A DNA stretch of 64,000 bases from an uncultured Erysipelotrichia bacterium (GCA_964593055.1 CAZQIG010000002.1:28631-92630); one strand, 5' to 3'; shown: positions 1-17,285, numbered from the stretch's first letter. The notes: a model not told the origin generated them from the sequence alone. Translations and numbers: made by a program.

Positions 1-1971
1 GAAATTGATGTTGACCTTGTTATCCCAGACCGTAGTCTTTCATTACGTGAGGGTGCAATCAAAACTTTTCAATTTGATGATAATTCAGTTTATTTTCAAG
101 AAATGCTAGCAATAAGCAAGCATTACGGTTTTGATATAGAATTACCAATTAATAAATGGAAAAAAGAGCATTTAGATTTTGCTTTATATGGTACAAACGA
201 TAAGGTAGAAGTTATCTATCGTAATAATAAAGGTGATGTAAGAAGCAGTAATAAAAAAGTTGAAGGACTAATTAATGGTTTAAATAGAAGATACTTAGAA
301 ACATCAAGCAATTGGATGCGCAATTACATTGAAGGGTTTATGCGTAACCATGTTTGTCCAGTTTGTAAAGGGAAGCGTTTAAAGCCGACTGCTTTAAGCG
401 TCCGTGTTGCTAACTTAAATATTGATGATTTAACACACTTAAGTGTGGAAAAGGCTTTAGATTTTTTTACTAATATTAATTTGAGTGACAAGCAAGAGCA
501 TATAGGTAAATTAGTTTTGAAAGAAATTATTTCAAGACTAACATTTTTAAATGATGTAGGTTTAAGTTATTTGACTTTGAATCGTTCTGCTGGAACATTA
601 AGTGGGGGAGAGTCACAAAGGATTAGGCTTGCAACACAAATAGGTAGTCAGTTGAGTGGCGTATTATATGTTTTAGATGAACCTTCAATTGGTTTGCATC
701 AACATGATAATGATCGCTTGATAAAGAGTTTGAAGAAAATGACACAATTAGGTAATACTTTAATTGTAGTAGAGCATGATGAAGATACGATGCGTGCTTG
801 TGATCATATTGTCGATATCGGACCTAGTGCAGGGATTCACGGTGGAGATGTTATTTATAATGGAGATTATAAAGGAATTCTAGCATGTGAAAAAAGTATC
901 ACAGGTCAATACTTGAGTGGAAAAAAAACTATTTCATTACCAAGTAGTTTGCGTGAAGGAAGTGGCGAGGAGTTAGCTATCCTTGGGGCAAAAGCCAATA
1001 ATTTAAAGAATGTGGATGTTAAGTTTCCTTTAGGAAAATTTATTTGTGTAACAGGTGTTAGTGGTAGCGGTAAATCGAGTATTGTCAATGAAGTACTATA
1101 TAAAGGATTAATGAAGCACTTACACGGAAGTAAAAATATCCCAGGTGAACATCGTGAAATTCAAGGAATTGAGCATGTTGATAAAGTTGTTAATATTTCA
1201 CAATCACCAATTGGAAGGACTCCACGTAGTAATCCTGTAACGTATATTGGAGTATTTGATAAAATACGTGATTTGTTTGCTAGTTTACCAGAATCTAAAG
1301 TTAGAGGTTTCAAAAAAGGACGTTTTTCTTTTAATGTTAAAGGTGGTAGGTGTGAAGCATGTAGTGGAGATGGTGTTGTAAAAATTGAAATGCACTTTTT
1401 ACCAGATGTTTATACAGAATGTGAAGTATGTCGTGGTAAACGCTACAATAGTGAAACGCTTGAAGTAAAATATAAAAATAAGGCTATTGCTGATGTTTTA
1501 AATTTAACAGTTGATGAAGCAGTCGAGTTTTTTGAAAATCATCCACAAATTAGTAAAGGACTAATTACTTTACAAGATGTGGGCTTAGGTTATATTAAAC
1601 TTGGACAGCAAGCACCAACTTTGAGTGGTGGAGAAGCACAACGTGTTAAATTGAGTAAAGAGTTACAAAAAAAACCGACAGGTAAGACAATGTATATTTT
1701 AGATGAACCAACTACGGGTTTACATGTCCATGATGTATCGCGATTAATTAAAATTTTACATCGTCTATGTGATCATGGAGATACATTAGTTGTTATCGAA
1801 CATAATTTAGATGTTATTAAAGTTGCTGATCATATTATTGATTTAGGACCAAAAGGTGGCGATGCTGGAGGAAAAGTAATTGCAACTGGAACTCCTGAAA
1901 AGATTAGTAATAACAAGAAATCAATTACAGGAAGATACTTGAAAAAGTATTTTGAGGAGGATAAAAAATGA
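1..1971 (+). CDS. uvrA: Excinuclease ABC subunit A (UvrA), C-terminal ~650 aa; 5' end lies outside the window
   Basis: The frame stays open from nt 1 (EIDVDLVIPDRSLSLREGAIKTF...). Zn-finger CPVCKGKR and CEACSGDG motifs, two ABC signatures LSGGESQR and LSGGEAQR, and Walker A GVSGSGKSS are present. Confidence 0.9.
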   Translation, partial: EIDVDLVIPDRSLSLREGAIKTFQFDDNSVYFQEMLAISKHYGFDIELPINKWKKEHLDFALYGTNDKVEVIYRNNKGDVRSSNKKVEGLINGLNRRYLETSSNWMRNYIEGFMRNHVCPVCKGKRLKPTALSVRVANLNIDDLTHLSVEKALDFFTNINLSDKQEHIGKLVLKEIISRLTFLNDVGLSYLTLNRSAGTLSGGESQRIRLATQIGSQLSGVLYVLDEPSIGLHQHDNDRLIKSLKKMTQLGNTLIVVEHDEDTMRACDHIVDIGPSAGIHGGDVIYNGDYKGILACEKSITGQYLSGKKTISLPSSLREGSGEELAILGAKANNLKNVDVKFPLGKFICVTGVSGSGKSSIVNEVLYKGLMKHLHGSKNIPGEHREIQGIEHVDKVVNISQSPIGRTPRSNPVTYIGVFDKIRDLFASLPESKVRGFKKGRFSFNVKGGRCEACSGDGVVKIEMHFLPDVYTECEVCRGKRYNSETLEVKYKNKAIADVLNLTVDEAVEFFENHPQISKGLITLQDVGLGYIKLGQQAPTLSGGEAQRVKLSKELQKKPTGKTMYILDEPTTGLHVHDVSRLIKILHRLCDHGDTLVVIEHNLDVIKVADHIIDLGPKGGDAGGKVIATGTPEKISNNKKSITGRYLKKYFEEDKK

Positions 1972-3185
1972 ATCCGATTTTAATAGAAGTAGGACCGTTT
2001 ACTATTACATGGTATGCGTTATTTATTGTTACGGGTATTGCTATAGGATATTACTTTATGATTCGTTTGTTTGAAAAGGCGGGGATTGACCGTGATCAAT
2101 TTGATTATGCGGGCGTTGTAGGAGTAATTTTAGGTATTATTGGAGCAAGAATTTATTATGTGTTATTTAATCTAGAGTACTATTTAGATAATCTCAATGA
2201 AATTATTAGAATTGATCAAGGTGGTTTAGCAATTCATGGAGGAATAATAGCAGGTTTTATTTGGGCTTTTTATTATACTAATAAACATAAGATTAATAAG
2301 TTTTATGTAGCTGATTGTTTAGCACTTGCTTTTATGATTGCTCAAGCAATCGGTAGATGGGGTAATTTTGTTAATAAAGAAGCTTATGGAGCAGCAACTA
2401 CAAGAGAGTTTTTAGAAAAACTGTACTTGCCAGAGTTTATTATCGAAGGTATGAATATAGCGGGTATTTATTATCAACCAACTTTTCTATATGAATCTAT
2501 TTGGAATGTAATAGGTTTTATTATAGGTTATTTTGTGATTTTCAAAAGTAAGCTTAAGCGTGGTAGTACTTTTGTTTTTTACTTAGTTTGGTATTCAATC
2601 GGAAGAATTTTCATCGAATCTTTGCGTACAGATAGTTTATATCTAGGAGAAATTCGTATAGCACAGCTAATTTCAGTAGTGATGATTATTTTAGGAATAG
2701 CAGTGTTTTTGTATTTAAATTTTTTTCAAAAACAAAATGATGTAAAAATGATTGTAGCAACAACAATTGTTGTTAAAAATGATACAATATTATTAATCAA
2801 GAAAAATCAAGGTAGTTATAAGTATGGAATGCCTGGTGGTAAATCAGAATATTTGGAAATTCCGATTAAAACGGCAGCTCGTGAATTTGCAGAAGAGACA
2901 GGTTTGAATTTTTTGAAGTTAAAATTAAAGGTTATTTCAGAGGTTAAAATGCCAAATAGAAATTATCAAATGTATACTTTTTTAGCTGAAAAATATAGTG
3001 GTGAGGCATTCAAAGATAATGCTGAAGGGAAGTTAGAATGGGTAAAAATTAATGAATTGCAAAATATTGATGTATATGAAGGTGATTTAGAAATTATTAA
3101 TTTTGCACTCAATAATGATGGTATTTTAAAAATGGAACACGAGTATGACGAAAATCGTAATTTAGTTGGAAGTAAACGTTTATAA
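1968..3185 (+). CDS. lgt: Prolipoprotein diacylglyceryl transferase fused to a C-terminal NUDIX hydrolase domain
   Basis: The N-terminal ~265 aa are multi-TM with the Lgt signature GRWGNFVNKEAYG. The C-terminal ~140 aa carry the Nudix box GGKSEYLEIPIKTAAREFAEETG. It is one uninterrupted ORF. Confidence 0.75.
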   Translation: MNPILIEVGPFTITWYALFIVTGIAIGYYFMIRLFEKAGIDRDQFDYAGVVGVILGIIGARIYYVLFNLEYYLDNLNEIIRIDQGGLAIHGGIIAGFIWAFYYTNKHKINKFYVADCLALAFMIAQAIGRWGNFVNKEAYGAATTREFLEKLYLPEFIIEGMNIAGIYYQPTFLYESIWNVIGFIIGYFVIFKSKLKRGSTFVFYLVWYSIGRIFIESLRTDSLYLGEIRIAQLISVVMIILGIAVFLYLNFFQKQNDVKMIVATTIVVKNDTILLIKKNQGSYKYGMPGGKSEYLEIPIKTAAREFAEETGLNFLKLKLKVISEVKMPNRNYQMYTFLAEKYSGEAFKDNAEGKLEWVKINELQNIDVYEGDLEIINFALNNDGILKMEHEYDENRNLVGSKRL

Positions 3186-4370: not shown

Positions 4371-4467
4371 GGAAACAAGAAGGTAACTGGTGTGCCTACC
4401 GGTCTTCAAAACCGGATTGCGGCATTAAATTGTCGTGGGTGGGTTCGATTCCCATTTGTTTCCGCCA
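4371..4467 (+). tRNA. selC: tRNA-Sec (selC), anticodon UCA
   Basis: 97 nt, GGAAACAA...TTGTTTCC-G-CCA. It has an 8-bp acceptor stem, a long variable arm, the anticodon loop CUUCAAA (TCA at 4406-4408) and an encoded CCA. It is adjacent to selenoprotein genes. Confidence 0.8.
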
Positions 4468-4512
4468 ATTATAATGATTAAATAAAATTGAATAAATTAA
4501 ATGGAGGTATTT

Positions 4513-5472
4513 ATGGCAGAGCTATATGATTTGATAATCATCGGAGCAGGACCAGCAGGACTATCAGCAGGGCTTTATGCAGGACGCGCAAAACTAAAAA
4601 CATTAATTTTAGAAAAAAAAGCACCAGGTGGTCAAATCGCAACAACACATGAAGTTGCTAATGTTCCAGGATCACTATTTAGTGATGGAAAGACGGCGAC
4701 TACGGGACCTGAATTAACAGCACGTATGGTTGAACAAAGTGATCAATTTGGAGCAGAGCGTGTTAGTGATGAAGTTGTTGAAGTTGATTTCACTAATGAT
4801 ATAAAAGTAGTAAAATGTCGTAAGCAAACATATGAAGCTAGAAGTGTAATTTTAGCTCCAGGTGCTGAGCCACGTAAGTTAGGTGTTTTAGGTGAAGCTG
4901 AGCTGACAGGTAAAGGTGTAAGTTATTGTGCTACTTGTGATGGAGCGTTTTTCACTGATTTAGAAGTATTAGTTGTTGGTGGTGGATACTCAGCAGCAGA
5001 AGAAGGACTGTTCTTAACTAAATTTGCGAGCAAAGTAACAATTTTAGTTCGTGAAGGAGAATTTAGCTGTGCCCAAAGTGTTGTTGATAAAGTACTAGCT
5101 AACGATAAAATCGAAGTACGCTACAATACAGAGATTACCAAAATTACAGGTGATGGTATCGTTGAATCAGCAACGTTGAAAAATAATGTTACTGGTGAAG
5201 AAGAAGAATACATCGTTGATGATGAGTTTGGAACATTTGGAATATTCGTATTCGTAGGATTCGTGCCACAAACAAATGTATTTAAAGATAAAATCACATT
5301 AGATAAATGGGGTTATATTCCAACAAGTGAAGATATGCAAACTGATGTTGCAGGAGTTTATGCAGCAGGTGATGTACGTCCTAAATCATTAAGACAAGTT
5401 GTTACAGCATTAAGTGATGGAGCAATTGCTGCAACAGCTGTTGAAAAATATATTGATGAGAAATTTCACTAA
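4513..5472 (+). CDS. trxB: Thioredoxin reductase
   Basis: The FAD motif GAGPAG and the redox-active CATCDG are present. GGAGG RBS lies 5 nt upstream of ATG 4513. The ORF track start at 4501 is probably upstream of the real start. Confidence 0.85.
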   Translation: MAELYDLIIIGAGPAGLSAGLYAGRAKLKTLILEKKAPGGQIATTHEVANVPGSLFSDGKTATTGPELTARMVEQSDQFGAERVSDEVVEVDFTNDIKVVKCRKQTYEARSVILAPGAEPRKLGVLGEAELTGKGVSYCATCDGAFFTDLEVLVVGGGYSAAEEGLFLTKFASKVTILVREGEFSCAQSVVDKVLANDKIEVRYNTEITKITGDGIVESATLKNNVTGEEEEYIVDDEFGTFGIFVFVGFVPQTNVFKDKITLDKWGYIPTSEDMQTDVAGVYAAGDVRPKSLRQVVTALSDGAIAATAVEKYIDEKFH

Positions 5473-5492
5473 TTTTTAGAAAGGAGGATAAT

Positions 5493-5801
5493 ATGGAACT
5501 ATTAACAAAAGATAATTTTGAAGAAAAAGTTAGCAAGGGAGTTAGTTTAGTTGATTTCTTTAGTGAAAGTTGTGAGCCATGTAAGGCTTTAATGCCACAT
5601 GTTGAAGAAATGGAGAAGAAATATTCTGAAATGCCATTTTATAAGTTAGATACAGCAGGAGCAAGAAGATTAGCAATTAAGTTAAGAGTAATGGGTTTGC
5701 CAACAATAGCAATATTTAAAGATGGTGAGAAAGTTGAAGAACTATCTAAAGATGATGCTACTGTCGAAAATATAGAGGCAATGGTAAAAAAATATTTATA
5801 A
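5493..5801 (+). CDS. trxA: Thioredoxin (CxxC = CEPC), grd-associated
   Basis: 102 aa with a thioredoxin fold, WCEPC-type active site and [11 protein letters not shown]. It lies between trxB and grdA as in clostridial grd clusters. Confidence 0.8.
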
Positions 5802-5818
5802 CAAGAGGAGGCACAAAA

Positions 5819-6289
5819 ATGTTTAGCGGTAAAAAAATTGTGATTATCGGTGACCGTGATGGAATTCCTGGTGAAGCTATTAAAGCATGTGTTGAAACAA
5901 TTGCAGATGCAGAAGTAGTATTCTCTTCTACGGAGTGTTTTGTCTGAACGGCTGCAGGTGCTATGGATTTAGAGAATCAAAAAAGAGTAAAGGAATTTGC
6001 TGAAAACTACGGTCCTGAAAATTTAGTAGTTATTTTAGGAGCTGGTGAAGGAGAAGCAGCAGGTCTTGCTGCTGAAACAGTAACAGTTGGTGATCCAACT
6101 TATGCTGGACCTTTAGCAGGTGTAGAGCTTGGTTTAAATGTTTTCCATGCTGTGGAAGAAGAATTTAAATCAGCAGTTGATTCAAGTGTTTACGAAGAGC
6201 AAGTTGCAATGATGGAAATGGTTTTAAATGTTGATGAAATCGTTTCAGAAATGTCAGAAATTCGTAAATCTGGTAGTAAATTTTTATAA
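5819..6289 (+). CDS. grdA: Glycine/sarcosine/betaine reductase selenoprotein A (GrdA), with in-frame UGA = Sec at 5945-5947
   Basis: ATG 5819 sits after a GAGGAGG RBS. The translation is [15 protein letters not shown]...STECFV-U-TAAGAMD, which matches the conserved GrdA CFVU motif. The downstream ORF 5963-6289 is in the same frame. Confidence 0.85.
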
Positions 6290-6337
6290 ATTCAATAGCA
6301 CATAAAGTGTAGGTTGCACTTTTGAATGGATAGGACA

Positions 6338-6370
6338 AAGAAGAGTGTTAACTCTTCTTTATTATTTAGA
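6338..6370 (+). terminator. Hairpin plus T-tract between grdA and grdC; partial terminator or attenuator
   Basis: AAAGAAGAGT-gtta-ACTCTTCTTT 9-bp stem followed by TTATTATTT. Confidence 0.5.
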
Positions 6371-6388
6371 TTAATTTGGAGGATATTA

Positions 6389-7912
6389 ATGAAAGCAGTT
6401 ATAAAAAATACGGCGTATTGCTTAGTTCATACGCCAGATATGATTATGCATCAAGGGACAACACAAACAACAGAGAAAATTGTAAATCCTGATAGTGAAT
6501 ATTTAAAGCAAATTAATAATCATTTACGTAGTTTTGAAGAAGTTGTTGATTATGCACCAAATCAAGCATATATTGGGAATCTTCATCCAAATGATTTAGC
6601 AAAAATTGAAATGCCATATGTTGGAAAATCAGTTGATGGGAAAAGACAAGGAAAATTTGGAGAAATTTTACCACAGATAGAATTTATTGCACTTTTAAAG
6701 ATTTCAGATGTTTTTGATTTAGTGTTATTAGAAGAAAATTTTGCAAAAGAATGTTTAGAAGCATATAAACAAAATGAAATTGCTTTTGAAGAAGATTTTG
6801 CTAAATTAGAAAATGGTGTAGCATTAAGTGTATTAGAAGAAGAAGTAAAAAATCATGCAGAAGCTATTTATCATGATAATAAGTTAGTAGGATGTGTTAA
6901 AGCTGCTCATGATTTAGATCCTAACTTAAATGCGCACGTTATGTTTGAAAACTTAGTAGTTAAGGCTAGTGGAGTACATGCATTTAGACACTTATTACAT
7001 AAAAATAATATTAATCCACAAATAATTGATTATGTAATTGAATGTAGTGAAGAAGCTTGTGGGGACATGAATCAACGTGGTGGTGGAAACTTTGCTAAGG
7101 CGATCGCTGAAAGTTGTGGAGCAATTAATGCTACAGGTTCAGATTTAAGAGGTTTCTGTGCAGCGCCAACGCATGCATTAATTAGTGCAGCATCTTTAGT
7201 TGCTAGTGGAACACATGATAATGTTGTAGTAGTTGCAGGTGGAGCTACTGCTAAATTAGGAATGAATGGTAAAGATCATATTAAAAAAGAATTACCAATT
7301 TTAGAAGATGTTTTAGGAAGTTTTGCGTTCATGATTTCTAAAAATGATGGTATTAGTCCAATTGTTAGAAATGACATTACTGGAAAACATACTGTTGGAA
7401 CAGGTTCTTCACCACAAGCAGTTATGACATCTCTTGTTTTAGAACCATTACGTGCAGCAGGATTAAAGATTACTGATATCGATAAATATTCTGTTGAAAT
7501 GCAAAATCCTGATATTACTAAACCAGCTGGTGCAGGTGATGTTGCAGAAGCAAATTATAAGATGATTGCAGCATTAGCAGTTATGAATAAAGAGCTAGAT
7601 CGTGCTGATATTAATAGCTTTATTGATCATCACGGAATGAAATCTTGGGCACCAACACAAGGTCATATTCCATCAGGAGTACCTTATTTAGGATTTGCGA
7701 TTGAAGATATGACTACAGGAGATATAAACCGTGCACAAATCATTGGTAAGGGATCATTGTTCTTAGGAAGAATGACAAACTTATTTGATGGTATTAGTGT
7801 TGTTTTAGAAAGAAATAGTGGAGAGTTAGATGAAGAAATTAGTGATGATAAAATCAATAAGCTAATTGCTAAAGCAATGCGTAATTTCGCTGAAAGTTTA
7901 AGTGAGGAATAG
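6389..7912 (+). CDS. grdC: Glycine reductase complex protein C, beta subunit (GrdC), KAS-III-like
   Basis: GGAGG RBS before ATG 6389. The thiolase/KAS-like active-site region GFCAAPTHAL is present. Size (~507 aa) and position after grdA fit. The ORF-track start at 6326 is unlikely. Confidence 0.6.
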   Translation: MKAVIKNTAYCLVHTPDMIMHQGTTQTTEKIVNPDSEYLKQINNHLRSFEEVVDYAPNQAYIGNLHPNDLAKIEMPYVGKSVDGKRQGKFGEILPQIEFIALLKISDVFDLVLLEENFAKECLEAYKQNEIAFEEDFAKLENGVALSVLEEEVKNHAEAIYHDNKLVGCVKAAHDLDPNLNAHVMFENLVVKASGVHAFRHLLHKNNINPQIIDYVIECSEEACGDMNQRGGGNFAKAIAESCGAINATGSDLRGFCAAPTHALISAASLVASGTHDNVVVVAGGATAKLGMNGKDHIKKELPILEDVLGSFAFMISKNDGISPIVRNDITGKHTVGTGSSPQAVMTSLVLEPLRAAGLKITDIDKYSVEMQNPDITKPAGAGDVAEANYKMIAALAVMNKELDRADINSFIDHHGMKSWAPTQGHIPSGVPYLGFAIEDMTTGDINRAQIIGKGSLFLGRMTNLFDGISVVLERNSGELDEEISDDKINKLIAKAMRNFAESLSEE

Positions 7913-7915
7913 GTC

Positions 7916-9085
7916 ATGGGTTTAGAAAATAAAGTTGCAGAAGCTTTCAATAAGATTGCAACGCAAATTGAAACTGGTGATTTCGCTGATAAACTAAAAG
8001 TGGGAGTAACGCTTTTAGGGAGTGAACTTGGTGAAGAAGAAGTTTTACGTGGTGCAGAAGCAGCTGCGAAAGACGGACTATTTGAAGTTGTTGTCATCGG
8101 TAAACCGATAGAAACGAGTTTAGAGTTAATTGAAGTTGCTGATGAAAAAGAAATGCATACTAAAATGGAAGAGCTTTTAGATAGTAAATATCTAGCTGCT
8201 TGTGTTACACTACACTATAGCTTTGCAATCGGTGAGAGTACAATTGGTAAAGTTGTTACACCAGCAAAAGGTAGAGAAATGTATATTGCAACAACAACAG
8301 GAACTAGTGATACTAAAAGAACAATGGCAATGTTAAAAAACACTTTGTATGGAATAGCAGTTGCTAAAGCAGATGGGATTGAGAATCCAGCAGTTGGTAT
8401 TATTAATGTTGATAATGCTAAAACTGTTGAAAGATATTTGAAAAAATTAGCTGCACAAGGATATGCGATTAACTTTGCTGAATCTAAAAGAAGTGATGGT
8501 GGAGTAATAATGCGCGGTAATGATATTTTAATGGGTAGTGTAGATGTCATGGTTACTGATTCACTAACTGGAAATATCTTTATGAAGCTTTTATCTTCAT
8601 TTACAACAGGTGGTAGCTATGAAGCAAGTGGATCGGGATACGGTCCAGGAGTTAATTTTGAGAGTGAGCGTATTATAAATATTATTTCTCGTGCGAGTGG
8701 TGCAGTAGTTATTGCTAATGCAATTAAATATGCGCATACTTTAGCAAAAGGAAATTTACCAAAAGTTTTAAAAGCTGAGTATGAAAAATTACAAGCTGCA
8801 GGTTATACGGATATTTTAGCAGAAATTGAAAAGAAAGAAGCACCAAAGGCAGTAGAAGCTCCTAAAAAAGAAGTTGCTAAAGAAGTAGTTACTGCAGAAA
8901 TTAATGGAATTGATATCATGGATTTAGAAGATGCAGTAGCAGTACTTTTAAATGCAGGTATTTATGCTGAAAGTGGTATGGGTTGTACTGGGCCAATCGT
9001 ATTAGTTAATGATCAAAAATTAGATCAAGCAGTTGCTAAGCTAGCAGAAGCAGAGTTTATCGCACAAGAAGCAACGGGATGTTAA
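7916..9085 (+). CDS. grdD: Glycine reductase complex protein C, alpha subunit (GrdD), PlsX-like
   Basis: 389 aa with a PlsX-like fold (GIINVDNAKTVE...), immediately after grdC. Confidence 0.55.
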   Translation: MGLENKVAEAFNKIATQIETGDFADKLKVGVTLLGSELGEEEVLRGAEAAAKDGLFEVVVIGKPIETSLELIEVADEKEMHTKMEELLDSKYLAACVTLHYSFAIGESTIGKVVTPAKGREMYIATTTGTSDTKRTMAMLKNTLYGIAVAKADGIENPAVGIINVDNAKTVERYLKKLAAQGYAINFAESKRSDGGVIMRGNDILMGSVDVMVTDSLTGNIFMKLLSSFTTGGSYEASGSGYGPGVNFESERIINIISRASGAVVIANAIKYAHTLAKGNLPKVLKAEYEKLQAAGYTDILAEIEKKEAPKAVEAPKKEVAKEVVTAEINGIDIMDLEDAVAVLLNAGIYAESGMGCTGPIVLVNDQKLDQAVAKLAEAEFIAQEATGC

Positions 9086-11761: not shown

Positions 11762-11843
11762 TTAGTATAAATATAAAAGCTAGCTTAAAAGCTGGTTTTT
11801 ATTTGGTTATTAATAGGAAAATAAATTTTCGAAATCAAATACC

Positions 11844-11873
11844 TTGACAAGTATATTCCTATAGGGGTATAAT
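11844..11873 (+). promoter_or_regulatory. Consensus sigma-A promoter (TTGACA-18-TATAAT) with an embedded CCTATAGG palindrome; likely operator of the ArsR-family repressor
   Basis: -35 TTGACA at 11844-11849, -10 TATAAT at 11868-11873. The 8-bp palindrome at 11858-11865 lies in the spacer. Confidence 0.6.
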
Positions 11874-11890: not shown

Positions 11891-12244
11891 ATGGATAAAA
11901 TAAAACTTCTAAATATAATTAGTGAGAAAACTAGATTTAGAATTATTTGTCTATTAAGAGAAGAAAAAATTTGTGTATGTGAATTACAAGAATTGTTAGA
12001 TATAACACAAGTAGCTGCTTCTAAGCATTTAAAAAGGTTAAAGGAATTTGAAGTAGTTACTGCACAAAAGATAGGAAATAGAATTTTTTATACATTGAAT
12101 GATGATTTATATTGGATTTTTGATGTCATTAATATTATGATTCAAGAAGATAATCAGTTAAAAGAAGAACAAAGATTACTTAAGAATCATTTAGCAATTA
12201 GAGATGATAAGACTTATTCATGTCCGAGTGGTGATCAGCAGTGA
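11891..12244 (+). CDS. ArsR/SmtB-family metal-sensing repressor (CadC-like)
   Basis: 117 aa. The CVCEL metal-binding motif precedes the HTH ([13 protein letters not shown]). Its stop overlaps the ATPase start. Confidence 0.8.
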
Positions 12245-14409
12245 AAAAAGTATTCAAAATTGAAGGTATGACATGTGCTAATTGTGCACAAATTATTAGT
12301 AAAGCTTTTAATGAGAAAAGTGATATAAGTGCGGATGTTAACTTTTCATCAAGTAAGGTTACGGTTAAATATGCTGAAGATACTTATAGTATTAATGATT
12401 TAGAAGCAATTGTTGCTAGTGTTGGTTATAAGTTGATAGTCGATATAGATGAATATGATAGTCTTAGTTTTAAAAAATCGATGAAAAGAAATTTAATTAT
12501 CTCAATTATTTTATCTATTCCCCTTTTAATATCTATGTTAGGTCATTTGAAATGGTTTGATTTTATTTATGTTCCTAGTCTTTTCATGAATGGTGTTTTT
12601 CAGTTGATAGTTGCTTCAGTTATTCAGTTTTATATAGCTAAACAGTTTTATATTTCAGCTTATAAAGGACTTAAAAATAAAGTTTTAGGAATGGATTTAT
12701 TAATTGTTTTAGGAACTAGTGCAGCTTATTTTTATAGTGTATTTTTATTGTATAAACAGCTGTTTATTGAAAAATCGATGCATCCAGAATATTATTTTGA
12801 AATAAGTTCTATTATAATTACGATGGTTTTATTAGGTAATTATATTGAATTTATTGCTAAAGAAAGAACAACTAATGCACTAGGTGATTTAGCTAACTTA
12901 GTACCTAAAAAAGCTCGCTTATTAGTAGATGGTGATGAGAAGTTAGTAGAAACAAGCGATATTATAGCTGATAATTTGATGATTGTTTTAGCTAATGAAA
13001 AGATTCCAGTAGATGGGATTATTGATAAAGGTGATAGTAGTATAGATGAATCTTATTTTACAGGTGAAAGTTTACCTGTTAGTAAAAGTGTGGGAGATTC
13101 TGTCATCGGAGGAACGATAAATTTATCAGAAAGAATTATTGTCAAAGCTACTAGTGTAGGTGAAGATACTGTTTTAGCACAAATAATTCGAACTGTAGAA
13201 GAAGCTTCAAATACAAAACCTCCCATTCAACGTGTTGCTGATAAATTATCATCATACTTTGTGCCAATTATTATTTTAATTGCGATATTAAATTTCATGA
13301 TTCAGTTTTTCTTCTTAGGCTATGATTTTAATATAGTTTTTGCAAGAACAATTGCCATTTTAGTTATTTCATGTCCGTGTGCACTAGGCTTAGCAACCCC
13401 AACATCTATTTTAGTAGGAAATGGATTAGCTGCTAAAAATCATATTTTATATAAAGGCGGAGAATTTTTTGAGCTTGCTAATAAGATAGATGTAATATGT
13501 TTTGATAAAACAGGGACATTGACAGAGGGTAAACCTAATGTAACTGATTATATAGGAAATGATGAAGTTTTACAGTATGCTTTTAGTTTAGAAAAAGAAT
13601 CAACACATCCTATTAGTTTTGCTTTAATAGATTATTGTCAAGATAAAGCTTTTATTAAAAGTGATGTTGAAAAGTTTGAGGTTATTAAAGGTAAAGGTAT
13701 TAAAGGAATAGTTAATGGTAAACAAATCCATATCGGGTCATTAAATTTAATTTTAGATTTAGGTCTTGATTATAGTAAGTATTATCATAAGTATGAAAGT
13801 TTAGTTAATATGGCTAAAACTACAAATTTTATTGTTGTTGATAAAGAGATTAAAGGGTTATATGCTGTACGTGATGATATAAAATCAACTTCAAAAAAAG
13901 CTATTGAAAAAATAAAGGCAAAAGGATTGATTCCGATTATGATTACTGGTGATAATGAAAATGTTGCTGAAGCTATTGCTAAAGAAGTTGGAATTAATGA
14001 ATATTATGCTAATACTTTGCCAAATGATAAAAGTAAAATTATTAAAGATTTGCAAAGTCAAAATCATATAGTTGCTTTTGTTGGTGATGGTATAAATGAT
14101 GCACCTGCATTAAAAGTATCTGATATTGGTATTGCCATGGGTCATGGTACAGATATAGCAATTAATTCAAGTGATGTAACACTTATGAGTCATAATTTAG
14201 AACTCGTAGTAACAGCAATAAACATTTCTCAAGCAACTTTAAAAAATATTTATCAAAATTTCTTTTGGGCATTTTCTTATAATTTAGTAGCAGTACCACT
14301 TGCAGCGGCCGGATTCTTATCAATGGTTTTGGCAGCAGGGGCGATGGGATTTTCTTCGATAATGGTTGTTTTAAATGCTCTTAGGTTAAAAAAGAAAAAA
14401 GTTGATTGA
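12241..14409 (+). CDS. Heavy-metal translocating P1B-type ATPase (CPC motif; Cd/Zn/Pb type)
   Basis: HMA domain [11 protein letters not shown] in the TM6 region ([11 protein letters not shown]), [15 protein letters not shown]. Confidence 0.9.
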
Positions 14410-14433
14410 GTAAGTAGGAAAGGAGGTAAGAAA

Positions 14434-14970
14434 ATGAATAAGAAAATTGTTTTTGGAATAATAGCAATTATATTGTTTTTTGTAGGTATTTTTGCTCTTG
14501 ATCCTAAGGAATATAGTAATTTAAAAAAGTTTGTTGAAGAAAATGATGTAAGAACGGTTGTCGCTAAACTAGAAAATGGTGAGGTTGAAGAATTAAATGG
14601 TGTTGCTTATCCTAATTATATAGAAGTAAGTAATGAAAGAGAAACAGTAGTTTTAGAAGACGATAATAATGAATTTTATGTATCAATAGCTCCATATTTT
14701 GATACAACCCATTCATGAACTATTCATTATTTGACAGGATGTCAAGGTGAATTAAAAAATTATGAATTAAATGTTGTTATTAAAACTATTGATGGTAGAG
14801 TACTATATGATGGTAAAAAGACAACTTATAGTAATGGATTTATGGGATTTTGGTTACCAAGAAACGTGGAAGCAATTATTGAGTTAGAAAGTGAAGGCAA
14901 GGTAGGTGTTTATGCACTATCAACATTTAGTGATAGCCCTACTTGTATTACAACCTTTCAATTAAAATAA
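14434..14970 (+). CDS. Membrane-anchored hypothetical protein split by one in-frame TGA (14716-14718); candidate selenoprotein, otherwise a nonsense pseudogene
   Basis: ORFs 14434-14718 and 14731-14970 are in the same frame and separated only by TGA. A hairpin TTGACA-GGA-TGTCAA begins 12 nt after the TGA. The organism decodes Sec (selC and grdA are in this window). Confidence 0.35.
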
Positions 14971-14982
14971 AGGAGGAAAATT

Positions 14983-15249
14983 ATGCATTGTAGTTATTTT
15001 TTTGGGAGTAATTTAAGTATAGGAAGACATTTTATAGGTGGTGGAATTATGATGGTACTATTTTGGATCGCTATTATATTATTAGGAGTAGCTTTATATA
15101 ATGCTTTTAAGAAAAAATCTGGAGATAAAATATCTACAGAAACTGAATCAACATCAGAAGCATTAAGAATTTTACAATTAAGATATGCTAATAGTGAAAT
15201 TGATGAAAAAGAATATCTTCAAAAAAAGGGACAATTAAATAGTAAATAA
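14983..15249 (+). CDS. Small membrane protein with a C-terminal SHOCT domain
   Basis: One TM segment, then ALRILQLRYANSEIDEKEYLQKKGQL, which is SHOCT-like. Confidence 0.5.
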   Translation: MHCSYFFGSNLSIGRHFIGGGIMMVLFWIAIILLGVALYNAFKKKSGDKISTETESTSEALRILQLRYANSEIDEKEYLQKKGQLNSK

Positions 15250-15252
15250 TAA

Positions 15253-15288
15253 AATACACTCCATAATATAGGAGTGTATTTTATATAT
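15253..15288 (+). terminator. Intrinsic terminator closing the arsR-ATPase operon
   Basis: AATACACTCC-ataatata-GGAGTGTATT 10-bp stem followed by TTATATATTT. Confidence 0.6.
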
Positions 15289-15415: not shown

Positions 15416-15862
15416 ATGAAAAAAAAATATTTGAAAATTAAATCTGTAATACTATTTTTAGTATGCATGCTTTTCTTAATAACTTTAAATATTGTATTAA
15501 AAGTTTTTTTAGATTTTAGTATCTTATTACATCTTGTTATGACGAGTATTTTATTTTTGAGTACTGTTGTTATAATTTTTATTCATGTAAAATACTTGCA
15601 GAGCTATAAATATAAAGTAGATGAGCAAAATCTTTATATTTTTTCTGGCTATGTTTGTAAAAAACATGCTTGCTTTCCAATACGTAGAATTCAACATGTT
15701 GAGTATTATCAATATATTGTACAAAAGAAATTTCAGCTCGCGTGCGTAAAAATTGTCACTGGTGGTGGAATTGGATTAATTAAACTTTTAGATGTTAATG
15801 AAGCGGTAGAATTAACAAATTTATTAAGTAGTACAATACATAGGAGGTTAGATGAAGAATAG
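15416..15862 (+). CDS. YdbS-like bacterial PH-domain (bPH_2) membrane protein
   Basis: 148 aa with an N-terminal TM pair and a C-terminal domain. It is paired with, and overlaps, a larger YdbT-like gene as in the B. subtilis ydbST operon. Confidence 0.4.
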   Translation: MKKKYLKIKSVILFLVCMLFLITLNIVLKVFLDFSILLHLVMTSILFLSTVVIIFIHVKYLQSYKYKVDEQNLYIFSGYVCKKHACFPIRRIQHVEYYQYIVQKKFQLACVKIVTGGGIGLIKLLDVNEAVELTNLLSSTIHRRLDEE

Positions 15863-17285
15863 AAATCATCCAATATCTATTATTAATATTAAATATTCTT
15901 TTCTAATATTATCTGTATTATTGTTTTTTGTTATTTTCTTTGAGAGCTCTAAAAAATGGGTATTTTATTTAGTAATCGCCAGTGTAGCTAGTTTATTTGT
16001 ACTATTTTTTTTATTGAGGATTTTGATGTGGTATAAAACAAATTATGAGGTTACTAATGACAAAATAATTTATAATAGATTTATGAAGTTTACTGTTTTT
16101 AATGTAACAATGAATATTGATAACATTTCTTCAATCAACGCATCAGCAAATTTATTATATAGAATTTTGCAAGTTTCTCGTGTTTCGATTACTTCTAATA
16201 CAGGAGTAGGAAATGCTGATGATTCAATTGATTTGATTATTTCTAATTCTCAATATCAACAATTAAAAGAAGCACTTGAAAAAGATTCTTCTACAAAAGA
16301 AGCTTCTTCAGAAGTTGTTAAGTATCGTTATAACTTTATCGATGTTCTTTATTTTCTACTTATTTCAGTAATTATTCCGGGTGTTATAGTAGTTATTTTC
16401 TCATTCTTACTTTTTAACTTACTAAAGATTAAATTTAATTTAAATACTGTTTTACTTGATTTTGATACTATATTATTTAGTTTAGAACTTTTAGTACCTG
16501 TATCTTTATATAAGTTTATTGAATATAAGAGACTTTTAAATCTTCAAGTTGTGTTTGATAGACTAAGAAGTAAAGTAATAATAAAATCATATTTATTATC
16601 AGAAAGTGAAATTGAGTTTGATTATCAGCAAGTGAAGGTATTGAAATTATATAATTATACATTATTTAAAAAATATTTTTTGAAAGTAGGTATTGTTAAC
16701 TCGTTAGAAACTTCTAATGAGGCAACGGTAATTCCTTTTCTTTCTGCTTTAACTAATAGACAAAAAATAGAAAGTATTTTAAATGATTTAAAATATAGTT
16801 TTAGTGAGAGGCTTAAGTATCGACCTAGCAAAGTTAGATTGCTATATATTGTGATACAAGTACTTATCTACGTGTTAATTCTTGTAATTATATTTTTCAT
16901 CGGAATAACATATCTTAATAATCCTTTTATCTGGCTTCCTTTCGCTCTTGCAACTTTTGTAGGAATTTTAAGAAAATTTCTTAAAATATTTAGCCATTTT
17001 AAAACTGAGTATATCGCATTTGATGAAAAAAATATTATTGTTGCTACTGATTATTATTTACATAAAAAATTTGTTTTTGATTATGATAATGTGCAGATGG
17101 TCACAATAACACAAAATCCATTAGATAAATTGTTTAAAGTAGCAAATGTTTATATTAATATTTTTTCGTATAATGTGCAAGAAAAAACGGTTTATAAACT
17201 AGAAAAGTATCGATATAAAAAAGCGAATGAAATTTTAAAACATATTGAGAGTAAAATAAATTATCAAAATAATATTAGAAGTTAG
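15852..17285 (+). CDS. YdbT-like multi-bPH-domain membrane protein
   Basis: 477 aa with repeated TM-pair plus soluble-domain units. It is translationally coupled to the upstream gene. Confidence 0.4.
   Translation: MKNRNHPISIINIKYSFLILSVLLFFVIFFESSKKWVFYLVIASVASLFVLFFLLRILMWYKTNYEVTNDKIIYNRFMKFTVFNVTMNIDNISSINASANLLYRILQVSRVSITSNTGVGNADDSIDLIISNSQYQQLKEALEKDSSTKEASSEVVKYRYNFIDVLYFLLISVIIPGVIVVIFSFLLFNLLKIKFNLNTVLLDFDTILFSLELLVPVSLYKFIEYKRLLNLQVVFDRLRSKVIIKSYLLSESEIEFDYQQVKVLKLYNYTLFKKYFLKVGIVNSLETSNEATVIPFLSALTNRQKIESILNDLKYSFSERLKYRPSKVRLLYIVIQVLIYVLILVIIFFIGITYLNNPFIWLPFALATFVGILRKFLKIFSHFKTEYIAFDEKNIIVATDYYLHKKFVFDYDNVQMVTITQNPLDKLFKVANVYINIFSYNVQEKTVYKLEKYRYKKANEILKHIESKINYQNNIRS

Follow-up and report, generated by a model that had tools for sequence, protein, structure and literature searches.

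A stretch of 64,000 nucleotides from an uncultured Erysipelotrichia bacterium (GCA_964593055.1, CAZQIG010000002.1:28631-92630), called here the window and always meant at its full length, contains at positions 14434–14970 a CueP-family gene that appears to encode a selenoprotein. The gene is interrupted by one in-frame TGA, and the evidence favours, with a probability of about 0.9, a single intact gene whose TGA specifies selenocysteine (Sec) where Salmonella CueP has Cys96. A preliminary description of the locus had proposed a candidate new selenoprotein. The candidacy is strongly supported by the pairing of Cys and TGA codons at one position, by the occurrence of the TGA in more than 100 diverged genes, and by a downstream hairpin of the bacterial selenocysteine insertion sequence (bSECIS) type. 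The word ‘new’ holds for the selenoprotein and not for the protein, which is the Sec form of a known Cys family. The gene has the following parts.

14434–14970, plus strand: cueP (Sec form), 178 codons from ATG 14434 to TAA 14968–14970, with TGA as Sec codon 95; predicted membrane-anchored, extracytoplasmic, copper-binding selenoprotein of the CueP family
14422–14426, plus strand: Shine-Dalgarno sequence GGAGG, read from the sequence, 7 nt 5′ of ATG 14434
14446–14499, plus strand: N-terminal hydrophobic segment IVFGIIAIILFFVGIFAL after MNKK; predicted signal anchor or signal peptide, without a lipobox
14710–14712, plus strand: His93 codon, an invariant column, equivalent to His94 of Salmonella CueP
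14716–14718, plus strand: UGA codon 95, putative Sec, equivalent to Cys96 of Salmonella CueP
14725–14727, plus strand: His98 codon, an invariant column, equivalent to His99
14740–14742, plus strand: Cys103 codon, invariant, equivalent to Cys104; within the 3′ arm of the hairpin
14944–14946, plus strand: Cys171 codon, invariant, equivalent to Cys172; third conserved ligand

Two open reading frames (ORFs), 14434–14718 (94 aa) and 14731–14970 (79 aa, with a nominal TTG start), share one frame, and TGA 14716–14718 is the sole stop between 14434 and the TAA at 14968–14970, as the preliminary description had stated. The same pair of 94-aa and 79-aa ORFs is found on at least six contigs from several samples or assemblies (GCA_019826185.1, SRR15291767, SRR15291763), and thus the TGA is not an assembly artefact. 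The peptide translated across residue 95 is ...FDTTHS-U-TIHYLTGCQGELK. The proposed read-through product of 178 aa proves to be covered on both sides of the TGA by one CueP domain model (residues 52–176). The spacing originally given as U-x8-C needs correction to U95-x7-C103, the intervening TIHYLTG being seven residues long. By analogy with Salmonella CueP, Cys103 is likely to be the partner of Sec95, either in a selenenylsulfide or in copper binding. The hydrophobic segment near the N-terminus is 18 residues long by translation, with a topology inferred from the positive-inside rule; relatives of the protein have lipoboxes or signal peptides.

The identity of the protein is given by domain models and by one solved structure. 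With Cys entered at residue 95, the product matches Pfam PF21172 (CueP) over residues 52–176 (E 5e-40; 136.7 bits against a cut-off of 27) and NCBIfam NF038094 (E 2e-41; 141.3 bits against 60). The model for the strict CueP metallochaperone equivalog, NF038095, is missed (108.5 bits against a curated cut-off of 195), and the protein is therefore a member of the broader family rather than a CueP ortholog in the strict sense. The sole solved relative is Salmonella CueP (4gqz; E 3e-23), and the alignment with it crosses the TGA: THS-U-TIHYLTGCQGE is aligned with THPCFNHSLSGCQGE of 4gqz, which places the TGA on the Cys of ‘THPCF’, i.e. Cys96. All five Salmonella positions (His94, Cys96, His99, Cys104 and Cys172) are kept, as His93, UGA95, His98, Cys103 and Cys171. 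In Salmonella CueP, Cu2+ leads to a Cys96–Cys104 disulfide and O2 to a Cys96–Cys172 disulfide, and mutation of any one of the five residues abolishes protection against the copper-driven Fenton reaction (PMC3935622).

Homologs show what stands at the codon elsewhere. In the first homolog search, the Sec position was occupied by ‘W’ in two hits (49% and 44% identity with the window protein) and by Cys in one. Both ‘W’ genes have TGA at the site, the other Trp codons on those contigs are all TGG, and the ‘W’ is a product of translation under code 4. An exhaustive HMMER profile search of 1.84 billion representatives yielded 509 CueP relatives. Among the best 150 of these 509, the Sec column holds Cys in 138 and ‘W’ in 10, with 3 fragments cut exactly at the codon and no other residue. 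Every ‘W’ entry with its DNA read turned out to be TGA (P0001, P0002 and P0159, 3 of 3; the other ‘W’ representatives are P0011, P0020, P0037, P0053, P0070, P0071, P0096 and P0117). In a second protein search, Cys forms and N-terminal fragments came to 55 each, the fragments being about 97 aa long and stopping just before the codon, and there were seven ‘W’ forms, P0159 included. The question posed at the outset, whether homologs carry Cys, Sec or a stop here, can thus be answered: this codon is either Cys or TGA, and no other residue is seen.

At the DNA level, the TGA form was sought with the pattern A-P-Y-x3-T-H-x-TGA-x2-H-x4-C-x-G-E, which matches at least 120 metagenomic stretches, with 106 distinct genes among them. 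All of these matches are CueP-like ORFs of full length that carry a signal peptide or lipobox. One in-frame TGA, never more, occurs in each of the 106 genes, and their Trp codons are TGG without exception (263/263). Conservation extends to the C-terminal motifs NGF..WLPR and TC.TTF, both of which lie outside the search pattern. A lack of conservation across the TGA had been named beforehand as evidence against a selenoprotein; conservation is found to cross it in more than 100 diverged genes. Sec and Cys forms may be close relatives, as in the pairs L036 (Sec) and P0003 (Cys), 71% identical, and L012 (Sec) and P0165 (Cys), 61% identical. Scans of species-representative genome contigs found no relative with a single-protein query and only one Cys-form actinobacterial locus with an alignment query, and so no Sec forms come from those genomes.

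Public protein sets misrecord Sec-CueP, either as full-length proteins with ‘W’ from code 4 contigs (e.g. P0001, P0002 and P0159) or as stubs of about 97 aa (P0220–P0274) that have no Pfam hit. Such entries, i.e. stubs, C-terminal fragments and false ‘W’ residues, could mislead counts of pseudogenes and the inference of genetic codes for low-G+C contigs.

The RNA hairpin is located within the coding sequence just 3′ of the TGA.

14722–14752, plus strand: bSECIS-type hairpin; outer helix 14722–14727/14747–14752, 7-bp stem 14730–14736/14740–14746, loop GGA 14737–14739

The preliminary description had pointed to a perfect hairpin, TTGACA-GGA-TGTCAA, 12 nt 3′ of the TGA. This is confirmed (TTGACA 14731–14736, GGA 14737–14739, TGTCAA 14740–14745), and the hairpin is lengthened by a U14730–G14746 pair and by the outer helix. 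The U–G pair brings the stem to 7 bp and places its start 11 nt after the TGA, and the apical loop is 18 nt after the UGA. The published bSECIS model specifies a loop of 3–9 nt, an upper stem of 4–16 bp, a G in loop positions 1–2, a spacing of 16–37 nt, and a minimum free energy (MFE) of −7.5 kcal/mol or lower (PMC13188914). The window hairpin has the loop GGA, a 7-bp stem, a spacing of 18 nt and an MFE of −8.5 kcal/mol, and lies within the limits of all four bSECIS criteria of that work. The earlier remark that the spacing and the G-containing loop fit a bacterial SECIS is thus borne out.

The hairpin overlaps conserved codons (L-T-G-C-Q-G), and for this reason it was tested against the expectation for coding sequence. 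Synonymous-codon shuffles of the window gene give a mean of −2.65 kcal/mol against the observed −8.5 (z −3.06), and 3 of 100 shuffles are as stable. Over the 106 genes the mean z of synonymous shuffles is −1.51, with 38% of genes in the top 5%, and five control windows of the same genes show z near 0 and about 5% in the top 5%. A dinucleotide shuffle of the 45-nt element gives a z of −2.06. Covariation was assessed on 17 genes with the window-type hairpin. RNAalifold recovers the same 7-bp stem in these, and four of the seven pairs have compensatory double changes. When the outer helix is included, 92% of cells in the 11-pair count are paired, against 33–59% with the partner slid, and none of 500 shuffles equals the score.

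A different hairpin is present in a sediment clade of 88 genes marked by ‘SSCQGE’. It is shifted by 4 nt and has the form UCCUCCU-GUC-AGGGGGA. The corresponding codon run, TCC TCC TGT CAG GGG GAA, is nearly invariant, and its codons are close to frozen: TCC makes up 99% of the Ser codons there but 23% of those in the rest of these genes, with GGG at 98% and 22% of the Gly codons and CAG at 100% and 43% of the Gln codons. Two architectures occupy the same codons (L010–L129 compared with window 14730–14746), the Bacilli-type with a stem 11 nt after the UGA and a loop GG(U/A), and that of the sediment clade with a distance of 15 nt and a loop GUC. The hairpin is missing in 13 of 14 Cys-form genes (z −1.2 to +1.7). 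In L004, the 71%-identical Cys ortholog of the Sec gene L036, two synonymous substitutions (TTG to TTA, TGT to TGC) disrupt the stem. Judged by its codons and pairings, the cueP hairpin is under selection.

Whether the organism decodes Sec can be read from two features 8–10 kb upstream of cueP in the same window.

4371–4467, plus strand: selC, tRNA-Sec with anticodon UCA (ARAGORN; Rfam RF01852, 71.5 bits against a gathering score of 47)
5819–6289, plus strand: grdA, glycine reductase selenoprotein A, with Sec-UGA 5945–5947 in the canonical CFVUTAAG motif

The pieces of GrdA match NF040748 at positions 2–40 before the TGA and 42–149 after it. In public gene calls grdA, like cueP, appears as two pieces, here of 42 and 108 aa. 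By its motif and model match, grdA is an internal positive control for Sec decoding in this organism. As a separate observation, tRNA-Sec lies directly upstream of trxB-trxA-grdA(Sec)-grdC-grdD (window 4371–9085), with no grdB or grdE in the window or in the 10 kb upstream of it.

Three other explanations of the TGA have been weighed, and all are effectively excluded. The first takes UGA as a codon for a standard amino acid, whether through a reassigned code (code 4, Trp; code 25, Gly) or through a near-cognate tRNA that inserts Trp or Cys. The G+C content of the window is 28.9%, and because of this low value a Mycoplasma-type code had to be excluded first; several public homologs are also recorded with ‘W’ at the site. 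This explanation is nevertheless very unlikely. The window uses code 11: TGA terminates 17 of 78 long ORFs, Trp is always TGG in real genes, and cueP and grdA are the only two real genes with an internal in-frame TGA. The 106 homologs tell the same story, the single TGA always being this codon, and the ‘W’ entries with their DNA read are TGA translated under code 4. The position is otherwise Cys, not Trp or Gly, in the 138 relatives counted above. Low-level read-through by a near-cognate tRNA may contribute, but would leave the conserved hairpin unexplained.

A fresh nonsense mutation had been offered in the preliminary description as the alternative, whereby a Cys (TGT or TGC) or Trp (TGG) codon became TGA and left a dead gene making only a 94-aa stub. 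One base change suffices for this from any of the three codons, and public gene calls do give two ORFs at the locus. The same event would, however, have to be repeated in more than 100 diverged genes that are otherwise intact and conserved downstream. The window gene retains every conserved residue 3′ of the TGA and has no frameshift, its hairpin is under synonymous-site selection, and the organism has a tRNA-Sec. The proposal is rejected as highly improbable.

The weakest proposal, two genes, in which TTG 14731 starts a C-terminal protein of 79 aa separate from a membrane-anchored N-terminal one of 94 aa, with TTGACA as a possible internal −35 box, can draw on TTG being a permitted start codon and on a promoter scan hit (TTGACA-18-AAAAAT, 14731–14760, 10/12 matches), but is scarcely credible, since 14731 has no Shine-Dalgarno sequence comparable to that of cueP (GGAGG precedes both cueP and the next gene downstream), the CueP domain and solved structure require residues on both sides of the TGA, a start at 14731 would leave the metal site without His93, residue 95 and His98, promoter-like hits in the region are at chance level (52 against 46.5 ± 6.6 expected), and homologs have no conserved start codon there.

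Several points weigh against a Sec-encoding cueP. The evidence for Sec-CueP is at the level of genes and sequence, and the chemical role proposed for its Sec is extrapolated from Salmonella CueP. The genes selA, selB and selD were not found in the window ORFs (NCBIfam scan) or in 10 kb upstream (L139). A dinucleotide shuffle of the 75 nt after the TGA is not significant (z −0.32); set against the z of −2.06 for 45 nt and of −3.06 for synonymous shuffles, this indicates that the element is short. A Cys-form (TGT) gene of Paraliobacillus ryukyuensis (L143 2501–3034, GCA_900168775.1), whose CueP is 61% identical to the Sec form L012, retains the hairpin TTGACAGGTTGTCAAGG, and thus the hairpin alone is not strictly diagnostic. 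Perhaps this hairpin is a fossil SECIS left by a recent switch from Sec to Cys. Lastly, even at relaxed thresholds Rfam has no SECIS family that recognises the cueP site. It also misses the real Sec site of grdA, and this negative is therefore without power.

The preliminary description had also placed the gene in a unit with an ArsR-family repressor and a CPC-type P1B ATPase. This operon context is confirmed, with a predicted promoter and terminators: cueP is the third gene of a four-gene unit, arsR-copA-cueP-SHOCT, that runs from a consensus promoter to a terminator.

11773–11802: terminator-like hairpin before the promoter
11844–11873, plus strand: operon promoter TTGACA-18-TATAAT, 12/12 consensus matches
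11891–12244, plus strand: ArsR/SmtB-family metalloregulator, first gene of the operon (PF01022; NF033788, 75 bits)
12241–14409, plus strand: CopA-type Cu(I) P1B ATPase (TIGR01511, 555 bits against a cut-off of 397), with an N-terminal CxxC HMA domain and a membrane CPC
14983–15249, plus strand: small membrane protein with a SHOCT-like C-terminus, last gene of the operon (PF09851, E 2e-4, under the gathering score)
15249–15284, plus strand: terminator-like hairpin (14 bp) closing the operon

The proposed mechanism begins with expression of cueP, the ArsR-type repressor and the CopA-type Cu(I) efflux ATPase from one promoter. During translation, SelB-GTP-Sec-tRNA(Sec) would bind the hairpin, and Sec would be inserted at codon 95. 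The N-terminal helix would anchor the protein on the outer face of the membrane. In Salmonella, copper exported by CopA/GolT is received by CueP. By this analogy, the CopA-type ATPase of the window might supply copper to CueP, and Sec95, together with Cys103, Cys171 and the two histidines, might capture the copper that CopA expels and/or reduce Cu(II). A Sec95–Cys103 selenenylsulfide cycle, in which Cys171 might also take part, would mirror the Cu2+-induced Cys96–Cys104 disulfide of Salmonella CueP, and a selenolate could have the advantages of a lower pKa, greater softness as a ligand and easier re-reduction. Copper uptake or Cu(II) reduction outside the membrane is inferred from the operon and from the copper genes near Sec and Cys homologs. 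The chemical role assigned to Sec in CueP, reached by analogy, is held with moderate confidence.

The neighbours of homologs bear on this role. The close Sec homolog L003 lies after a multicopper oxidase gene. Cys-form CueP genes on plasmids and metagenomic contigs adjoin genes for copper ATPases, multicopper oxidases, CopD and HMA-DsbD proteins. In the sediment clade, the genes 3′ of Sec-CueP encode a TlpA/redoxin-like WCPPC protein (15 loci), a rhodanese (8) and a MauE/DoxX membrane protein (7); examples among L010–L129 are L087 1102–1755, L086 2301–2855 and L110 8795–9316. From its gene content this neighbourhood resembles a module for thiol redox chemistry in the periplasm more than a copper pump, which fits a need to re-reduce the Sec site. 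Linkage to CopA was considered as a general rule and is rejected, a CopA homolog being present in only 2 of 120 metagenomic Sec-CueP loci, most of whose contigs are short.

A small membrane protein, of the SHOCT type where a domain is detected, adjoins CueP in distant lineages and next to both Sec and Cys forms (window 14983–15249; L141 1124–1456; L142 2078–2410; L003 242–418). The SHOCT genes of L141 and L142 flank Cys-form CueP. This arrangement suggests that the small SHOCT-type neighbour is a conserved CueP partner.

It can also be mentioned that copA and cueP are in the same frame (window 12241–14970), and with TGA as a sense codon they form a single ORF of 919 codons. This merging is a trap for gene callers that use code 4.

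On the S. equorum plasmid pKS1030-2 (L131, NZ_CP068578.1 22332–22631), upstream of a copper-translocating ATPase, there is an unannotated CueP-like ORF of 116 aa, in the Cys form and with a short N-terminus. It may be a pseudogene, or a gene absent from the PLSDB table.

Elsewhere in the window, two overlapping membrane-protein ORFs (148 and 477 aa; 15416–17285) lie just 3′ of the copper operon and have no NCBIfam match. Positions 1968–3185 encode a prolipoprotein diacylglyceryl transferase (Lgt) fused to a C-terminal NUDIX hydrolase domain (PF01790 and PF00293). By AtpD, the closest relatives with a name are MAGs of uncultured ‘Bacilli bacterium’, at 81–82% identity.

The Sec form of CueP is apparently uncatalogued in the tables, main texts and models compared. 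Neither CueP nor PF21172 nor NF038094 is in the May 2026 table of 119 prokaryotic selenoprotein families (Table 1, PMC13188914). The main text of the BSepDB paper (111 families) makes no mention of CueP or copper. In NCBIfam release 20, 17 Sec-form proteins match only the two ordinary CueP models, and there is no dedicated Sec-CueP model. Within the literature searched, no paper joins CueP to selenocysteine or selenoproteins in a relevant sense. The mechanism itself, an in-ORF SECIS with Sec in place of a redox or metal-ligand Cys, is already well known.

If the Sec reading of cueP is correct, the copper operon of the window is intact rather than decaying, and the bacterial selenoproteome gains a family that handles copper outside the cytoplasm. 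Known selenoproteins mostly resemble thiol oxidoreductases, and Sec normally stands in for a catalytically critical Cys; Cys96 is thus singled out as the reactive residue of CueP. The position of Sec would support a redox role for CueP, i.e. Cu(II) reduction via the 96–104 chalcogen bridge, alongside simple chaperoning. A broader proposal can be made, and the balance tilts slightly in its favour: Sec-CueP may be an unrecognised, widespread family of extracytoplasmic selenoproteins, with Sec in the copper site of a metallochaperone or reductase, which would mark Cys96 as the catalytic nucleophile of all CueP proteins, with two in-frame SECIS solutions and with repeated switching between Sec and Cys. 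In this broader proposal, the switching is implied by the two SECIS architectures over the same codons.

Among known systems, the closest is Salmonella enterica CueP (PDB 4gqz; PF21172, NF038094/NF038095), a periplasmic copper-binding metallochaperone. It has the same domain as the window protein, with an identity of roughly 45–50% over the C-terminal domain, estimated by eye from the alignment. The two have in common the His-x-Cys/Sec-x2-His-x4-Cys ... Cys cluster and linkage to a gene for a Cu(I) P1B ATPase, and the window protein may also share the extracytoplasmic location. They differ in that Sec would replace Cys at position 96 in the window protein, which also appears to have an N-terminal helix anchor and comes from a low-G+C Bacilli-class bacterium, whereas Salmonella CueP is soluble in a Gram-negative periplasm.

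GrdA, encoded in the same window, shares with CueP the organism, the decoding system and the splitting in public gene calls. Unlike CueP, GrdA works in the cytoplasm as a redox carrier, its motif is CxxU, and its SECIS shows no obvious resemblance in sequence or predicted fold.

Metal-handling proteins with Sec are already catalogued: the UxxC cation P-type ATPase, a MerT-like protein, a CopZ-family 2Fe-2S protein, the UxxU protein (NF041115) and the SO_0444 Cu/Zn efflux transporter (PMC13188914). Sec-CueP resembles these in that a Cys with a redox or metal-ligand function gives way to Sec in a protein of heavy-metal resistance, with an in-ORF bSECIS right after the UGA. Fold and family differ, however, and the NCBIfam models of the catalogued proteins miss the window protein and 16 other Sec-CueP. 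The motifs also differ, the window CueP having U-x7-C and the catalogued metal-handling selenoproteins having UxxC, CxxU or CU.

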